Shown here piece by piece: positions 1,953-8,368 of a stretch of 15,029 nt of DNA. The translations under genes and the position numbers were made by a program. The notes under the pieces were generated by a model. It did not search any database. It was not told the origin of the DNA and was given only the letters and a program-made list of their open reading frames with translations. The stretch comes from a virus (Duplodnaviria; Heunggongvirae; Uroviricota; Caudoviricetes), in the IMG/VR virus record IMGVR_UViG_2565956714_000007, positions 1-15,029 of that record. One strand, given 5' to 3'. Position 1 is the stretch's first letter, and each line of letters opens with the position of its first letter.

Positions 1953-2131
1953 CTTGTTTTCCTCGCACGTTCTCTAAGCCACCGGATATCCCACAGGTGA
2001 GCCGTGTAGTTGAAGGTTTTTACGTCAGATTCTTTTGGGATTGGCTTGCGTTTATTTCTGGAGCGCTTCGTTGGAAGGTATTTGCAGTTTTCGCAGATGA
2101 TGTCGGTGATACTTCGTCGCTGTCGTCTCAT
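1949..2131 (-). CDS. ninE: NinE-like protein (60 aa from an internal Met of the 80-aa track ORF)
   Basis: [60 protein letters not shown]. Starting at this Met gives a 60-aa product with an ATGA overlap onto the ninB stop; the longer N-terminal extension would overlap ninB heavily. Confidence 0.65.
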
Positions 2132-2568
2132 GCCGCCCTGTCTCCCCATCGCGCTTTCCACTCCAGAGCCAGTCGCGCTTCGTCTGACCACTTAACGCCA
2201 CGCTCTGTACCGAATGCCTGTATAAGCTCTAATAGCTCCGCAAATTCGCTTACACGCATCCTGCTGGTTGACTGGCCTATTACCACAAAGCCATTCCCGG
2301 CAAGGTTAGGAACAACGTCCTGCTGCTTTAATGCTGCTGTAAAAACGCACTTCCAGCTTTCTGCATCCAGCCAGCGACCATGCCATTCAACCTGACGAGA
2401 GACGTCACCAAGGCAAGCCCAAAGCTTTCGATTCTGGTCTAAGCTGCGGTTGCGTTCCTGAATGGTTACTACGATTGGTTTGGTTGGGTCTGGAATGATT
2501 TGCTGTACTGCGTGAATAGCGTTCTGCTGATGGATGTGGCTTCTTAGTTCAAACGTTAGTTTCCTCAT
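2128..2568 (-). CDS. ninB: NinB (Orf-family recombination mediator, 146 aa)
   Basis: Length identical to lambda NinB (orf146). RBS GGAG 8 nt upstream of the ATG. Followed directly by ninE/ninF/ninG; ninC and ninD are absent. Confidence 0.85.
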
Positions 2569-2785
2569 GGGATGAACTCCAGTTTGCGATGTTAAATTCC
2601 CATTTAATTACCTTTGCATACCCAATTTTGAACCCATCAATACCTATCCACCGATTGCCACTCCAATAAGCTGTACCACTTTGCTTGAAATGATGTGGAT
2701 GCCTAGATTGAGTGGTCACAGTTACAGGTAAATATGGCTTCGGGTATTCCCCATTCCCTGGATAACCAGATTTAATTTTGCTCAT
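2549..2785 (-). CDS. Hypothetical protein (78 aa), AT-rich accessory gene
   Basis: ORF with RBS GAGAGGG before the ATG and an ATGA overlap with the upstream 108-aa gene. Visibly more AT-rich than the flanking nin genes. No recognisable motifs. Confidence 0.5.
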   Translation of the reverse strand: MSKIKSGYPGNGEYPKPYLPVTVTTQSRHPHHFKQSGTAYWSGNRWIGIDGFKIGYAKVIKWEFNIANWSSSHEETNV

Positions 2786-3108
2786 TGATACCCTCTCTCA
2801 CTTAATCGCGCCCACGCTTCGTTAAACTCTTCTCGGGTTGCGCCGGATTTTCTTTCTTCAAACATCATGCATTCGCTGATGTCTCCCCATGACTTTGGTC
2901 GCTTTTCAGCGAACAGATCATCCCATTCGAATACCCAGCGTCCTGATTTTCGGTAGTGGTAAATGGTCAGCCATGTTGTGCTGTTCGCTGGATACCCATA
3001 GAGAACTTCGACTTTTTGATCACGGTCTTTATGCTTTTTCAGCAGGATAAAGCCAGCAACCAGCGAAGCTCCGGCAAGAATGATGATTGGAATTTGCCAG
3101 TCAGCCAC
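2782..3108 (-). CDS. Hypothetical membrane-anchored protein (108 aa, GTG start)
   Basis: N-terminal hydrophobic helix (IPIIILAGASLVAGFILL) followed by a charged soluble domain. RBS GGGAG/AGGGAAG upstream of the GTG. Occupies the ninA position between ren and ninB. Confidence 0.5.
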   Translation of the reverse strand: MADWQIPIIILAGASLVAGFILLKKHKDRDQKVEVLYGYPANSTTWLTIYHYRKSGRWVFEWDDLFAEKRPKSWGDISECMMFEERKSGATREEFNEAWARLSERGYQ

Positions 3109-3122
3109 ACTTCCCTCTCCCC

Positions 3123-3155
3123 CAAATAAAAAGGCCTGCGATTACCAGCAGGCCT
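3123..3155 (-). terminator. Intrinsic terminator-like hairpin downstream of ren (minus-strand sense)
   Basis: 8-bp perfect stem AGGCCTGC/GCAGGCCT (3132-3139 / 3148-3155) with an 8-nt loop, followed on the minus-strand transcript by TTTTTATTT. Confidence 0.6.
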
Positions 3156-3180
3156 GTTATTAGCTCAGTGATGTAGATGG

Positions 3181-3471
3181 TCATTGCCTTACCTCCATAA
3201 GCGCCCTATTAATAAACGCCGTCATTGGATTTGCACATCCCCACCCCGTACCATCTGGATTTCTTTTAATTGGCTCCTTCTTCACTTTGCGTTTTGCATA
3301 AATAACCGTCTTCCACTTACGCTCAACAACACTCAAATGTCCTTGTTTCACCATATGCCTTGCTGCTTGAGCGATTCTGTTATTTGGTATTCCGGTGATC
3401 AGTGCTAATTCATGTGGGGAGAATTGTTCATGAGTTTTCAGATATTCCAGGATGATTTCTTTTCCAGTCAC
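3181..3471 (-). CDS. ren: Ren-like protein (96 aa)
   Basis: Same length and MTGKE start as lambda Ren, with scattered similarity to my recollection of the lambda sequence. ATGA overlap with the upstream DnaC-like gene. Lies between the replication genes and the nin region. Confidence 0.65.
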   Translation of the reverse strand: MTGKEIILEYLKTHEQFSPHELALITGIPNNRIAQAARHMVKQGHLSVVERKWKTVIYAKRKVKKEPIKRNPDGTGWGCANPMTAFINRALMEVRQ

Positions 3472-4313
3472 GATCTGCTCCTGTAACTATCCCATGTAAA
3501 CGCAAGAGTGCACCCGCCGCCATCATTCATCCTGTCAATAACACGCTCACCAATGAATGCAGACAGTTCATCTTTGCTCTGGTTGCTAATCAGGATTGTT
3601 GGCTTCATGCGCTCGTAGCGGGTGTTGATGATTTCGAACATGATCATCTTTTCCGCCTCGCTTCCAAACTGCACACCAACCTCATCGATAATTAGCAGGT
3701 CAGGTTTAGTGAACTGTCGGATCACTTCATCCTCTGTGCGGGTGGAGTTTTTCGACCATGTTGATTTATATTCTCTGGCAATTTTCAGCGCCGTTGTGAA
3801 AATAGCTGAGCTTTGATGTTCCGTAATTGCGTGCCGGGCGATAGCCAGTGCAAGATGATTCTTTCCAGTACCAGGCTTTCCACACATAACCAGCCCACCG
3901 CCTTTCTGTAACCTCTCAGGCCATTTGCTGGCGTATGCCTGACACACCCTGAGCACTCTCTTTGCATCGTCGTTGACTGGCTCGTAGTTCTGTAGTGTGC
4001 AACCCTTGAATCGTTCAGGAATATCAAGATTATTCAACAGAAACTCGACATTGCGCTTACGTGATTCCTCGTCGATTTTAATCTTCTCTGCCTGTAGCCG
4101 AATAAGCTCATCTCTCATGCATTCCGGGCATTCGCTAGGTCTTGAGGCAAACTTAATTGGCCCAGTCGAGTAACGGTTACGCTGCTCAAACTCACCATGT
4201 TTTTCACAGATGCCAGTGCCAATTTCTACAGATGTATGCTCGATAGCAATTGGCGGAGAACTCAATTCTGCAAGTTTTTTCTCCAGTTGGGAGATCTTTT
4301 CATCCAGCGTCAT
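3468..4313 (-). CDS. DnaC-like helicase loader / IstB-type AAA+ ATPase (replication protein P functional analogue)
   Basis: Walker A GKPGTGKNHLA, Walker B LLIIDEVG and a downstream arginine region typical of DnaC/IstB. Start placed at the second ATG (MTLDEK...), which has GGAG 6 nt upstream and sits 2 nt after the O stop; the track ORF extends to 4331. Confidence 0.85.
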   Translation of the reverse strand: MTLDEKISQLEKKLAELSSPPIAIEHTSVEIGTGICEKHGEFEQRNRYSTGPIKFASRPSECPECMRDELIRLQAEKIKIDEESRKRNVEFLLNNLDIPERFKGCTLQNYEPVNDDAKRVLRVCQAYASKWPERLQKGGGLVMCGKPGTGKNHLALAIARHAITEHQSSAIFTTALKIAREYKSTWSKNSTRTEDEVIRQFTKPDLLIIDEVGVQFGSEAEKMIMFEIINTRYERMKPTILISNQSKDELSAFIGERVIDRMNDGGGCTLAFTWDSYRSRS

Positions 4314-4315
4314 GT

Positions 4316-5158
4316 TCACTCCTGCGCCCATGAAGGCATTTCAGTTTGTCCGTAATCTTTGGTGGCAAAGTTTTCCTGCATAGCTCGATGCTGCGGCCTC
4401 GGTTGAGATTTCCCCTTTGGAGTCTTGGGCTCAAAAATCCCCTGCCAACCACTGGCGATGCTCTGGTTTATAATTTCTTCAGGTGTATATCCCTTCTCCA
4501 GACTTCTGCTTAGAACGTTGATAGCCTGAGTGACACTTTGCTTAGACTTGATCGACTTACCTATCTCCTTGCGATAGGTAACCCACGACAACCATGTTTC
4601 TGCTGATAACCAATCAGGCAACTCTGTTTCTAGCGGGTCGAACTTCTGAGAAACTTTTTTGGGGGATATAGGGGGTTTATTAATATTTTCTTTTGTCTTT
4701 AAAGAATGTCTTTTGTGTGTCTCTAACTTCGAGACATTGAGTGTCTCTAATTTGGGGACATTTTTTGTCTCTAACTTCGAGACAAAGTTGCTAACTTGGA
4801 GACACTTGCTGAATTGCCACGCAGATACCTCACTGTTTACACCGATTTGATTTCCATCCATAAACAGGCAATTCATTGAAATCAGTTCTTTTTTAGCCTT
4901 GTTAACATTCTGCCTTGACAGTCCTGTTAACTGAGCAATTTGCTCATCGGCTATTCGATCTGTTTTCTTATTGAATCCATATGTTTTCCGGACGTAGGCC
5001 AGCATAACTTTCAACTGGCGAGCGGTTAAATCGGCACTTGCGATAGCTTCCAGCAGCTCGTTAGCGAATCTGGTGTAACCATCATCGATATCAGCCACTC
5101 TTCGCTCCTGTTCAACAGGTTCACTCTTCGGCAGGTAAAATACTTCAGCAAGGCTCAT
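4316..5158 (-). CDS. Replication initiator, lambda O-like, with ori iterons inside the coding sequence
   Basis: N-terminal region resembles the phage O N-terminal DNA-binding domain. The central part of the protein (VSNFVSKLETKNVPKLETLNVSKLET) is encoded by the DNA iterons. Start placed at an internal Met (MSLAEV...) with RBS GGAGG; the track ORF extends to 5191 and would overlap the upstream gene by 47 bp. Confidence 0.8.
   Translation of the reverse strand: MSLAEVFYLPKSEPVEQERRVADIDDGYTRFANELLEAIASADLTARQLKVMLAYVRKTYGFNKKTDRIADEQIAQLTGLSRQNVNKAKKELISMNCLFMDGNQIGVNSEVSAWQFSKCLQVSNFVSKLETKNVPKLETLNVSKLETHKRHSLKTKENINKPPISPKKVSQKFDPLETELPDWLSAETWLSWVTYRKEIGKSIKSKQSVTQAINVLSRSLEKGYTPEEIINQSIASGWQGIFEPKTPKGKSQPRPQHRAMQENFATKDYGQTEMPSWAQE
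4718..4804. repeat. Origin of replication: four ~19-bp iterons at ~24-bp spacing, followed by an AT-rich segment (4676-4716)
   Basis: tgtctctaacttcgagaca (4718-4736), tgtctctaatttggggaca (4742-4760), tgtctctaacttcgagaca (4766-4784) and a degenerate copy gttgctaacttggagaca (4787-4804). Each is an inverted repeat TGTCTC...GAGACA. Architecture matches lambda ori inside O. Confidence 0.8.
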
Positions 5159-5789
5159 TTCCAACCTCCGCATCAAAGCATTGGGCTTCAAGAGACTTAA
5201 CCATCACCACACTGCCATCTGTATTAATAACTATCGATGAGTTATATTTGCTTATCAGTTGCTTCGCGTAATCAATTCCGGCGCGAATAAGGAAATTTTT
5301 CACCGCAGGAAGATGACCAACTACACTACCCAGACCTTGCTCTATAAGCTCCTCATTAAGATCAAGCTCATTTTCATGGCGAAAAGAAATGAATGAGTCG
5401 TAAATTGCGTATTCTGCCGTCTCGCCATTTCTTTCAGGGCCAACCAGCGCCCTTATTTCATTTAGAGATTCAGAAAGATCATTATCTTCAAGCTTGAAAA
5501 ACTCTCGATTATCACTAAGCCTCTCTTTTGCAAAGGCTTTATGAATGAGTTTTTCATCTGATGCGGGATTATTTGAATGAAAGGCTGCTATCACCTTAAA
5601 TGGCTTAGGAACGCCAGTAGAGGCTGAAATTTCTTTAGCCCTAACTTCTGGTGAATGCTTAGTCATCCCAATCTTATAAATTCCTGGCATGCACTCATTC
5701 GAAAGCACATAAACAAAGCCATTTGATTTAAAATCATCTGGCACCTTCATGCTCTTCAGAACCTGGAATTTGTCATTTTCGTATGTCAT
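5145..5789 (-). CDS. GIY-YIG-like (T5orf172-type) domain protein, 214 aa; accessory gene inserted between cII and the O-like gene
   Basis: N-terminal GFVYVL...PGIYKIGMT...R..E....P...IH..F...R...REFF pattern matches the T5orf172/GIY-YIG-like nuclease fold; C-terminal ~110 aa unassigned. Strong RBS AGGAG 6 nt before the ATG. Visibly AT-rich relative to cII and O. Confidence 0.7.
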   Translation of the reverse strand: MTYENDKFQVLKSMKVPDDFKSNGFVYVLSNECMPGIYKIGMTKHSPEVRAKEISASTGVPKPFKVIAAFHSNNPASDEKLIHKAFAKERLSDNREFFKLEDNDLSESLNEIRALVGPERNGETAEYAIYDSFISFRHENELDLNEELIEQGLGSVVGHLPAVKNFLIRAGIDYAKQLISKYNSSIVINTDGSVVMVKSLEAQCFDAEVGNEPC

Positions 5790-5823: not shown

Positions 5824-6105
5824 TCAGGCCTCGAAGAATTCGCCGTTCTTCGGGGCTTTTTCTTTTGTCAGGTAATTGGCAAGCCGCTTAGTCAGCTCAG
5901 CCATTTCATCGTCTTCGATTCCGTATTCCAGAACAGCCAGCATCATGCTTACCTGCGAGAAGAAACCATTCTTCCATCGGCTTACCTGATATTCAGGAAC
6001 CCCCATTGCTCGAGCGAATGTCTTCTGCCCCATCAGTGCCAGTTTGTTCAGCAAGGCTGACTCGATGCGAGCCGCTTTCTTGCTTTTAGTTGCAATAGTA
6101 CCCAT
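5824..6105 (-). CDS. cII: CII transcriptional activator (93 aa)
   Basis: Strong similarity to lambda CII (RIESALLNK...SRWK...MLLAVLEYG...DDEMA). RBS AAGGA upstream. Immediately downstream of nutR and cro. Confidence 0.85.
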   Translation of the reverse strand: MGTIATKSKKAARIESALLNKLALMGQKTFARAMGVPEYQVSRWKNGFFSQVSMMLAVLEYGIEDDEMAELTKRLANYLTKEKAPKNGEFFEA

Positions 6106-6181: not shown

Positions 6182-6213
6182 GCCCTTTTTCAGGGCGGGG
6201 ATGTGTAAGAGCG
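6182..6213 (-). promoter_or_regulatory. nutR (boxA + boxB) N-utilisation site
   Basis: Minus-strand boxA CGCTCTTAC (6205-6213) followed by boxB hairpin GCCCTGAAAAAGGGC (6182-6196), matching lambda nutR as I recall it; between cro and cII. Confidence 0.8.
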
Positions 6214-6221
6214 TTAATAAC

Positions 6222-6452
6222 TTAAGCGGCCATTAATTCAGGCCAGATGCTTTCCCAATCAACCGGATGAAGGTCTTTGCGAGTCACTTCACCATTGCTG
6301 AACTTCTCAATCAGAACACAAAGTGCTGCGCCCAATTCATGATTACGGCTAAGTGCTTTCCTCAAATAGCCGATAGAAGTTCCGCACTTGGTGGCAAATT
6401 CTCTCTGCTCTTCCAGTGAAAGGGAGTTCAGATACAAGCGGAGTTCTTCCAT
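6222..6452 (-). CDS. cro: Cro-like HTH repressor (76 aa)
   Basis: First gene of the PR operon, divergent from cI. HTH-like segment QREFATKCGTSIGYLRKAL. RBS GGGAAGGAG upstream of the ATG. Confidence 0.7.
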   Translation of the reverse strand: MEELRLYLNSLSLEEQREFATKCGTSIGYLRKALSRNHELGAALCVLIEKFSNGEVTRKDLHPVDWESIWPELMAA

Positions 6453-7736: not shown

Positions 7737-7767
7737 CGCTCTTAAAAATTAAGCCCTGAAGAAGGGC
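7737..7767 (+). promoter_or_regulatory. nutL (boxA + boxB)
   Basis: boxA CGCTCTTAA (7737-7745) and boxB hairpin GCCCTGAAGAAGGGC (7753-7767), matching lambda nutL as I recall it. Confidence 0.85.
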
Positions 7768-8035: not shown

Positions 8036-8368
8036 ATGGATGCACAAACACGCCGCCGCGAACGTCGCGCAGAGAAACAGGCTCAATGGAAAGCAGCAAA
8101 TCCCCTGTTGGTTGGGGTAAGCGCAAAACCAGTTAACCGCCCTATTCTCTCGCTGAATCGCAAACCGAAATCACGAGTAGAAAGCGCACTGAATCCGATA
8201 GACCTTACAGTGCTGGCTGAATACCACGAACAGATTGAAAGCAACCTGCAACGTATTGAACGCAAGAATCAGCGCACATGGTACAGCAAGCCACGCAGTG
8301 AAATGGGTGTGACATGCTCAGGCCGCCAGAAGCGACGCGGAAAATCAATTCCAGCTTATTACGATTGA
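8036..8368 (+). CDS. N: Antitermination protein N (110 aa)
   Basis: MDAQTRRRERRAEKQAQWKAANPLLVGV... is essentially the lambda N arginine-rich motif and body; only the C-terminal tail differs. RBS AGGAGAA upstream. Downstream of PL/nutL. Confidence 0.9.
   Translation: MDAQTRRRERRAEKQAQWKAANPLLVGVSAKPVNRPILSLNRKPKSRVESALNPIDLTVLAEYHEQIESNLQRIERKNQRTWYSKPRSEMGVTCSGRQKRRGKSIPAYYD

Follow-up and report, generated by a model that had tools for sequence, protein, structure and literature searches.

The stretch of viral DNA considered here (15,029 nucleotides, hereafter the window) carries on its minus strand a lambda-like prophage's early-right (pR) operon, which runs through cro, nutR, cII, a T5orf172 gene, O, the gene for a DnaC-like loader, a ren-like gene and ninA, with the terminator tR2 lying inside the latter. 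Past ninA the operon continues with two small genes, which we term orf108 and orf78, and then with ninB, ninE, ninF, ninG, a phosphatase gene and Q. Situated between the replication genes and Q, the two small genes make up a 540-bp insert (2569-3108) that follows the conserved ninA/tR2 boundary and has ninB as its right-hand border. The features relevant to the locus are the following:

1-519: antiterminator Q (profile match)
2128-2568, minus strand: ninB, the Orf recombination mediator (Pfam NinB, E = 3.6e-54)
2549-2785, minus strand: orf78 (phrog_29435), ATG start, 78 aa, a predicted small all-beta protein
2782-3108, minus strand: orf108, a homologue of Sf6 gene 46 (phrog_5903), GTG start, 108 aa
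3101-3184, minus strand: ninA, an intact 27-codon ORF with the translation MTIYITELITGLLVIAGLFIWGRGKCG
3113-3120, minus strand: GGAGAGGG, a Shine-Dalgarno-like site that closes the boundary sequence, from the sequence and alignments
3122-3155, minus strand: tR2, a lambda-type intrinsic terminator recovered in a terminator scan, with its stem-loop at 3132-3155 and T tract at 3122-3131
3468-4331: IstB-like loader (profile match)
4316-5191: Phage_rep_O (profile match)
6182-6196, minus strand: nutR boxB with the exact lambda sequence, and boxA CGCTCTTA a few bases upstream
7753-7767: nutL boxB
8036-8368, plus strand: lambda-type N antiterminator gene (Pfam N36, E = 1.3e-26)

A scan of the whole window with Rfam recovered no RNA family.

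A preliminary description of the locus had the two small genes replacing ninA, directly behind a strong hairpin terminator at 3123-3155. The hairpin is present and is lambda tR2 by sequence: an 8-bp stem with six G-C pairs and an 8-nt loop is followed by TTTTTATTT, the hairpin and T tract are identical to those of lambda tR2 (J02459), and the same hairpin is annotated as a terminator or as tR2 in Sf6 and phage 21. Its folding in a 66-nt context is not exceptional against shuffled sequences (z = -1.06), and we accept it as real because of its near-identity to lambda tR2 rather than because of its folding energy. As for ninA, it has not been replaced; it is intact, with its ATG at 3184 and the stem of tR2 starting inside it at 3155, and in lambda, too, tR2 has been placed 30 bp past the NinA AUG (PMC4824070). 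The ninA/tR2 boundary differs from that of lambda by 1 nt across about 80 nt, and the segment from the ninA ATG to GGGAAGT shows no change relative to phage 21, a single-base difference in Sf6 and another in Oslo. The annotated counterparts of ninA are gene 45/bsq6 of Sf6 and NinA/Orf26 of phage 21. The gene overlaps the stop of the ren-like gene by ATGA and the start of orf108 by GTGGCTGA, and the Shine-Dalgarno-like site of the boundary serves whichever gene comes next: orf108 in this phage, ninB in lambda and phage 21. As a side reading, translation of ninA through tR2 might tune the transcription that reaches orf108 and orf78. A second terminator-like hairpin, at 3052-3064 inside orf108, was discarded, as it lies within chance expectation.

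In-frame NinA-orf108 fusions of 133-137 aa, which stem from indels in the T/G runs past the hairpin, are rare (2/80 viral loci). We also considered whether ninA might be a vestige of the N terminus of gene-46 proteins, since in the protein P0085 (locus L020) the gene-46 core directly continues a NinA-like helix. This was rejected in favor of a secondary fusion, which is the simpler reading because the contig L185 carries the same NinA variant as a separate ORF of 30 codons, with another gene behind it.

The 108-aa product of orf108 is a full-length member of phrog_5903 (E = 8.9e-76, profile positions 1-108 of 108) and shows 99% identity to the product of Sf6 gene 46 (AAQ12235.1) over 107 of its 108 residues. 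Its earlier characterization as membrane-anchored holds good: the AlphaFold2 model (pLDDT 84.8) has an N-terminal hydrophobic helix at residues 5-27 (about 3040-3093), the Kyte-Doolittle maximum over 17 residues is 2.54, and lysine and arginine residues number zero before the helix and five behind it. We infer that the protein is bitopic in the inner membrane, the N terminus being predicted outside and the C terminus inside, so that a conserved 75-aa alpha/beta domain, with the motifs GYP, TWLTIYH and FEWDDLFD, would face the cytoplasm at the membrane. In virulent phages, relatives have a short amphipathic helix instead of the TM helix, and this swap suggests that the membrane-held soluble domain is the working part. 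Elsewhere, relatives are found beside replication genes, either behind DNA polymerase A or between a primase/helicase and a helicase, and those in lambdoids lie behind a helicase or primase; their neighbors in the phages KookSpook and Goslar are uninformative. This adjacency to replication genes may be merely a matter of early-gene clustering in small genomes. In Pfam, NCBIfam and PADLOC the N terminus draws weak matches to small single-pass membrane proteins and nothing more, and a viral fold library returned only relatives of its own kind, from Goslar and IME207.

The 78-aa ORF also stands as first described. Its start overlaps the end of orf108 in a 4-nt ATGA (2782-2785), GAGG is found 6 nt ahead of its ATG, and its last 20 nt overlap the start of ninB. 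It is a full-length member of phrog_29435 (E = 1.3e-57, profile positions 1-78 of 78) for which 1.84 billion cluster representatives yielded 12 true relatives; two further proteins matching its profile (P0074 and P0075) are long and repetitive, and were set aside as low-complexity artefacts. A kinship to DUF551, considered on account of a motif resemblance, was likewise rejected: hhalign gave the DUF551 protein of L020 a probability of 0.08%, and none of the aligned orf78 sequences matched the Pfam DUF551 model. One relative is a 78-aa protein of an Enterobacter ludwigii prophage, which is 78% identical to orf78 and likewise lies immediately upstream of, and overlaps, ninB; there, however, it is behind a PF26207 protein rather than orf108. 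Copies in Klebsiella phages (e.g., VLCpiS13c S13c_00065) are 54-56% identical, follow a DUF7740 protein and are housed with a DNA methyltransferase in a small islet between tail genes.

That orf78 might be a spurious ORF is a thought invited by its lack of any annotated feature in all 25 RefSeq E. coli genomes with a copy, where NCBI's pipeline did not call it, and by the very small size of its family. We regard this as exceedingly improbable, given that comparison with the Enterobacter homologue yields a dN/dS of 0.15 at a dS of about 0.9-1.0, that in an alignment of 14 sequences reaching down to 39% identity 8 columns are invariant and a further 8 nearly so, that the model has a confident fold (pLDDT 85.2), that GAGG precedes the ATG and that a PHROG family exists. 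The dN/dS of orf108 is 0.04-0.27. Both are real genes under purifying selection, each with a confident fold, and orf78 is one that the pipeline missed in 25/25 complete E. coli carriers.

The segment had been depicted as AT-rich and, on that ground, as compatible with horizontally acquired cargo. Its composition gives no such signal: 2549-3155 has a GC of 0.453, where the window averages 0.454, and ranks at the 47th percentile of equal-sized windows, and the GC of the 540-bp insert (0.450; 46th percentile) equals that of the upstream replication genes (0.450), being below only that of the downstream nin genes (0.502). Taken alone, orf78 is lowish (0.405; 15th percentile), much as are the T5orf172 (0.403) and ren-like (0.423) genes. 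The exchange itself is nonetheless borne out by comparative evidence, in the form of four upstream modules and three downstream neighbors. In the 80 IMG/VR loci with orf108, the module ahead of it is of four kinds (DnaB-type, primase-helicase, lambda-ren or ren-like), and the gene behind it is a homologue of Sf6 gene 47 in 47, orf78 in 23 and ninB in 10; annotated contexts are those of Sf6, Oslo, E2348/69 and EC01307. Conversely, among 115 tR2-bearing viral loci the next gene is ninB in 58 and orf108 in 10, with other small genes in the rest, which comprise one homologue of Sf6 gene 48 and at least six other kinds, several of them membrane-anchored. These comparisons indicate that the tR2-ninB joint is a recombination site for swaps of small genes among lambdoid phages. 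As the boundary sequence combines a recombination joint with a ribosome-binding site, the slot would work on while its contents change.

The same surveys bear on whether orf108 and orf78 belong together. In complete E. coli genomes orf108 occurs in 108/5,426 and orf78 in 25/5,426, and orf108 is without orf78 in 83 of those 108 genomes and in 57 of the 80 viral loci; the diverged relatives of orf78 in phrog_29435, for their part, have other upstream neighbors and lack orf108. Profile-profile comparison gave no ground for a relationship between the two, which share only a GYP tetrapeptide. They are, on this evidence from gene neighborhoods, two independent non-core accessory genes, each found without the other. 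Because the close copies of orf78 sampled so far (at least 96.7% identical) always lie behind orf108, one might alternatively entertain a facultative, lineage-specific partnership, wherein orf78 has joined orf108 as a helper or modulator while each family is also able to act alone. Such copies are directly behind orf108, with the coupled start, in 25/25 E. coli genomes and in 23/23 cases in IMG/VR, the latter loci having themselves been selected for carrying orf108. However, the linked copies are 96.7-100% identical and could thus go back to a single recent recombination event, the link is gone at greater divergence, and neither the profile-profile comparison nor domain content hints at a shared system; we consider the partnership unlikely.

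The preliminary description had further raised, as speculation, a small toxin/antitoxin-like or exclusion pair. In such a pair, or in one that acts by abortive infection, one protein would be toxic, the other would neutralize it, and the two together would exclude other phages. Two small ORFs with an ATGA overlap, one of them membrane-anchored, together with the constant company of orf108 around close orf78 copies, speak in its favor. The overlap is as described, but it is not distinctive, being the local norm: all 11 junctions from O to Q in this operon overlap, by 4-20 nt. The independent assortment of the two genes, with orf108 so often alone and diverged orf78 homologues next to unrelated partners, argues against a pair, as does the presence of orf108 relatives in virulent phages. 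The homology and structure searches that had been called for placed both proteins in PHROG families (phrog_5903 and phrog_29435) but gave no significant match in Pfam, NCBIfam or PADLOC, toxin-antitoxin and defense profiles included, even with family members added to the queries (best Pfam E = 0.083), nor any match of either family profile to PDB sequences (best E = 0.93). Moreover, a scan for sigma-70 consensus sites found no promoter-like site by the pair, which sits behind tR2 in an operon repressed in the lysogen. A toxin/antitoxin-like pair is, in our estimate, very improbable.

A related proposal would make the insert a moron expressed from the prophage, which acts in lysogenic conversion or superinfection exclusion and has transcription signals of its own. 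In favor, the segment is small, accessory and lodged between conserved genes, and orf108 is membrane-anchored, as are some exclusion proteins. Against this, the tR2 T tract and the start of orf108 are separated by only about 14 nt; a scan of 2000-3700 on both strands for sigma-70 consensus sites, the class of promoter that it covers, found no sigma-70-like site; the pair has no terminator behind it, since orf78 overlaps ninB by 20 nt; and the composition is not deviant. We deem a moron of this kind quite improbable. The pR operon behind tR2 is silent in a lambda lysogen, and the combination of a lambda-type N gene with the exact nutR boxB suggests that orf108 and orf78 are probably N-dependent and delayed-early. 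By analogy to lambda, the two genes would be transcribed from pR only, once N permits read-through of tR1 and tR2; they would be delayed-early lytic genes, silent in the lysogen, and would be translated as links in the overlapping chain of nin genes. Overall, we consider it likely that orf108 and orf78 are independent accessory genes in the tR2-ninB slot with N-dependent, delayed-early expression.

Literature searches on both PHROG families, including Sf6 gp46, yielded nothing on function, and neither protein has a detectable structural or sequence relative outside its own family. As a best guess, though a rather doubtful one, orf108 would act at the membrane in the course of lytic growth by binding or sequestering a cytoplasmic factor of the host or the phage, in the service of host takeover or anti-defense; its action could possibly be linked to replication, and orf78 would be a separate soluble small beta-protein that acts alone. 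A broader conjecture, which we likewise advance at low likelihood, is that the tR2-ninB joint might be a dedicated slot for interchangeable lytic-only effectors, many of them membrane-targeted, with orf108 and orf78 as independent members; orf108 would in that case inhibit a conserved host factor from its tether at the membrane, in anti-defense or replication takeover. The locus as such is an ordinary, already known lambdoid mosaic, of which both genes are already catalogued as 'unknown function'; it is textbook mosaicism with little new biology. One modest point of interest is the Sf6 gene-46 family, a compact membrane-tethered domain without a recognizable fold relative, which is common to temperate and virulent phages of Enterobacterales and is therefore a reasonable candidate for accessory-gene screens.

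Comparison with known systems helps to place the insert. Type II toxin-antitoxin modules resemble it in that two small ORFs adjoin and the stop codon of one overlaps the start codon of the next; unlike them, orf108 and orf78 co-occur inconsistently, belong to no known toxin or antitoxin family and lack a detectable promoter of their own. Lambdoid morons, which the HK97 and HK022 literature treats as independently transcribed accessory inserts, are similar in being small, non-core, inserted between conserved genes and variable among related phages. In contrast to them, the insert shows no sigma-70-like promoter and no terminator of its own (the upstream terminator being the operon's tR2), does not deviate in composition as a whole, and is tied into the operon through codons that overlap. 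A further parallel is Sf6, where gene 46 occupies the same place as orf108, directly behind the ninA/tR2 boundary sequence (bsq6); there, however, it is preceded by a DnaB-type helicase and followed by genes 47-49, whereas here orf108 comes behind a DnaC-like loader and a ren-like gene and leads to orf78. In lambda and phage 21, ninB lies directly behind the ninA/tR2 boundary, whereas this phage has two extra genes between them. With the lambdoid nin region itself (described in 1995, and compared here as it is cited in PMC8022706 and PMC10695390) the insert shares the position in the pR operon, the tight packing with stop and start codons that overlap, the entry through tR2, and N and nut elements of the lambda type. 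ATGA overlaps and stop-start linkage are typical of nin regions (PMC8022706), and the nin genes of lambda are non-essential (PMC10695390).

The window covers the early region of a prophage of lambda type; its rightward (pR) operon runs on the minus strand, and its features are as follows:

6222-6452, minus: cro-like gene, first in pR order
6182-6211, minus: nutR, with boxA CGCTCTTA upstream of an exact lambda boxB (6182-6196)
5824-6105, minus: cII-like gene
5145-5789, minus: T5orf172 gene, between the cII-like gene and O
4316-5191, minus: replication protein O
3468-4331, minus: IstB/DnaC-like loader
3181-3471, minus: ren/MarR-like gene (96 aa)
3101-3184, minus: ninA (27 codons)
2782-3108, minus: orf108
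2549-2785, minus: orf78
2128-2568, minus: ninB
1949-2131, minus: ninE
after ninE, minus: ninF, then ninG
after ninG and before Q, minus: phosphatase
1-519, minus: antiterminator Q
strand opposite the pR operon: repressor of the S24 peptidase family
7753-7767, strand opposite the pR operon: nutL, with an exact lambda boxB
8036-8368, strand opposite the pR operon: lambda-type N gene (Pfam N36, E = 1.3e-26)

Given the exact lambda boxB in both nutR and nutL and the lambda-type N, this phage has lambda N specificity, though its replication and nin modules differ. A mechanical ORF list gives ninE as 80 aa (1949-2191, minus) from a GTG inside ninB; the lambda-like NinE has 60 aa, starting at an ATG at 2131 in an ATGA overlap with the ninB stop. 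The T5orf172/MUG113 (GIY-YIG-like) protein of 214 aa is encoded by a GC-poor gene (0.403) overlapping the start of O by 47 nt. Its PADLOC matches are to the candidate defence family PDC-S57 (E = 6.4e-29) and to a C-terminal region of PD-Lambda-1 (E = 8.5e-12); the gene is possibly an insertion of defence or homing type between cII and O. The module combination of the 15-kb window is contiguous in none of 5,426 complete E. coli genomes (best coverage 58%), and its pairing of an upstream ren-like gene with a downstream orf78 was not seen among 80 orf108-bearing viral loci.

Both orf108 and orf78 are real genes, present at the lengths first described (108 and 78 aa). The former matches phrog_5903, the family of Sf6 gene 46, over its full length (E = 8.9e-76), shares 99% identity with that gene and shows a dN/dS of 0.04-0.27 with four close homologues. 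The latter matches phrog_29435 (E = 1.3e-57) and is under purifying selection (dN/dS = 0.15 at a dS of about 0.9-1.0 against a 78%-identical Enterobacter homologue); it goes unannotated in all 25 complete RefSeq E. coli genomes where it occurs. The structural models of both are confident (pLDDT 84.8 and pTM 0.67 for orf108; 85.2 and 0.71 for orf78).

The preliminary description held that these genes form an AT-rich cassette replacing ninA behind a hairpin terminator. The hairpin is indeed there, but it sits within ninA, the ORF of which (MTIYITELITGLLVIAGLFIWGRGKCG) is intact. About 80 nt, from the ninA ATG through GGGAAGT, are nearly invariant across the compared phages: this boundary stretch is identical between the window and phage 21, and differs by one base each in Sf6, Oslo and lambda. 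The Sf6 record labels it gene 45 (NinA-like), boundary sequence bsq6 and terminator tR2, and a terminator is annotated at the same stretch in the phage 21 record. In lambda, tR2 lies 30 bp past the NinA start codon (PMC4824070), a spacing with which the ninA start (3184) and hairpin (3155) of the window agree. Whereas in lambda and phage 21 ninB begins 1 nt past GGGAAGT, in the window orf108 begins at that point; hence, the insert is 540 bp long (2569-3108). Within the boundary sequence, a Shine-Dalgarno-like GGAGAGGG serves any gene placed next. An intact 27-codon ninA precedes orf108 in 65 of the 80 IMG/VR loci; ten lack a recognizable ninA start, about eight of these having a different upstream gene and no tR2 hairpin. 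As for composition, the GC content of 2549-3155 (0.453; 47th percentile) is that of the window (0.454), and the insert (0.450) equals the upstream replication genes, being below only the downstream nin genes (0.502). Even orf78 alone (0.405; 15th percentile) is not below the ren-like or T5orf172 genes.

In-frame fusions of NinA to orf108, 133-137 aa long and with two hydrophobic helices, are also found in the databases (among proteins P0002-P0014); they are rare (2/80 viral loci, L021-L100) and stem from single-base indels in the T and G tracts immediately past the tR2 hairpin. In one diverged variant of NinA/tR2, the hairpin stem has one compensatory change (C-G to G-C, costing a Gly-to-Ala substitution) and one wobble pair. 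In viral locus L020 (899-1222; P0085) this variant supplies the N-terminal TM helix to a protein that resembles gene 46 and otherwise has none, and in L185 (about 3680-3800) it is a free 30-codon ORF. In this variant the same bases thus encode a terminator hairpin and a hydrophobic helix; on the basis of this single lineage, the tR2 hairpin appears to be under selection.

A tR2 sequence scan of viral contigs gave 115 usable loci (among L105-L224, IMG/VR), revealing the slot between tR2 and ninB to be a hotspot for small genes. Directly past tR2 stands ninB in 58 loci and orf108 in ten; the others have different small genes, namely a homologue of Sf6 gene 48 and six or more other kinds. The commonest, in about 27 loci, codes for a 68-aa protein with two TM helices, which stands ahead of orf108 in at least two loci; others code for a PF26207-like protein of 92 aa, a protein of 71 aa and two distinct proteins of about 90 aa, each anchored at its N terminus. 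Several of these alternatives are small membrane proteins.

The two genes are tied into the pR operon by overlapping codons directly behind tR2, and no sigma-70-like promoter was found in 2000-3700 on either strand; that they constitute an autonomous moron is quite improbable. In lambda the nin region is dispensable, and every gene past cro requires N antitermination (PMC10695390). With a lambda-type N/nut system in the window, lambda biology would predict both genes to be silent in the lysogen and, after induction or infection, to be made as delayed-early products through the coupled nin gene chain. The ATGA overlap noted between them (2782-2785) is present but no special signature: each of the 11 gene junctions between O and Q has an overlap (4-20 nt), and ATGA junctions are typical of all lambdoid nin regions (phage L genome paper, PMC8022706).

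Nor are orf108 and orf78 a unit. Among the 5,426 complete E. coli genomes, orf108 occurs in 108 and orf78 in 25, with the exact pair in 25. In the 80 IMG/VR loci with near-identical orf108, it is followed by an Sf6 gene-47 homologue (47), orf78 (23) or ninB (10), and preceded by a DnaB-type helicase, a primase-helicase, lambda ren or a ren-like gene, in all combinations. Sf6 has genes 46-49 and then ninB; phage Oslo and an E2348/69 prophage have ninB directly after orf108, and strain EC01307 offers a further annotated example. More distant relatives of orf78 occur between a PF26207 protein and ninB in an Enterobacter ludwigii prophage, and after a helical DUF7740 protein in Klebsiella siphophages, within a small islet that lies between tail genes and includes a DNA methyltransferase. 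With partners differing in this way, the toxin/antitoxin pair suggested earlier is very improbable. A facultative partnership, while somewhat less so, is still unlikely: the sole point in favor of linkage is that close copies of orf78 always directly follow orf108 in the samples covered, but these are 96.7-100% identical and may derive from one recent event.

Taken separately, orf78 is probably a soluble protein acting alone. It is small and mostly beta and belongs to a very small family: a search of 1.84 billion cluster representatives yielded 12 true relatives. For orf108, the searches made gave a family of about 100 clusters, all of them single-domain proteins (51-149 aa) and none fused to another domain; every named organism belongs to the Enterobacterales or is one of their phages. 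Its conserved core reads K-V-x-V-L-Y-G-Y-P ... T-W-L-T-I-Y-H-x-R ... F-E-W-D-D-L-F-D-x-G-R-P-K-S-W-G ... G-A-T-x-E-E-x-x-x-A-W, and the AlphaFold2 model shows one helix at each terminus, a three-stranded sheet and a fourth strand. The membrane anchor proposed earlier is supported by the N-terminal helix at residues 5-27 and a hydrophobic 17-residue segment scoring 2.54. A TM helix is seen in 65/100 members, typically preceded by no K/R and followed by 2-6 of them, which predicts an N-out/C-in topology. As another 32/100 have only a short amphipathic N-terminal helix (e.g., MGKWWEKIRKRFNDW in Goslar-like phages; MKLLKWLINLF), the functional part would seem to be the soluble domain, kept at the membrane's cytoplasmic face. 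From sequence, we infer that orf108 is a membrane-tethered cytoplasmic domain acting alone. Relatives occur in the jumbo phage Goslar and the 112-kb phage KookSpook; between primase/helicase and helicase genes in Skatevirus and Shuimuvirus siphophages; immediately after the polymerase in phages encoding DNA polymerase A; and after a helicase or primase in lambdoid phages. We tentatively suggest that, at the inner membrane, orf108 might bind or inhibit a factor of host or phage origin in lytic growth, perhaps with a link to replication in light of these recurring neighbors, though the odds are against this specific role.

Neither protein has a detectable structural or sequence relative beyond its own family, and standard annotation misses orf78. 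The kind of arrangement is already known: mosaic joints like this one are typical of the nin region in lambdoid phages, PHROG families exist for both genes, and orf108 is gene 46 of Sf6, annotated in its genome record AF547987 (Casjens et al. 2004).
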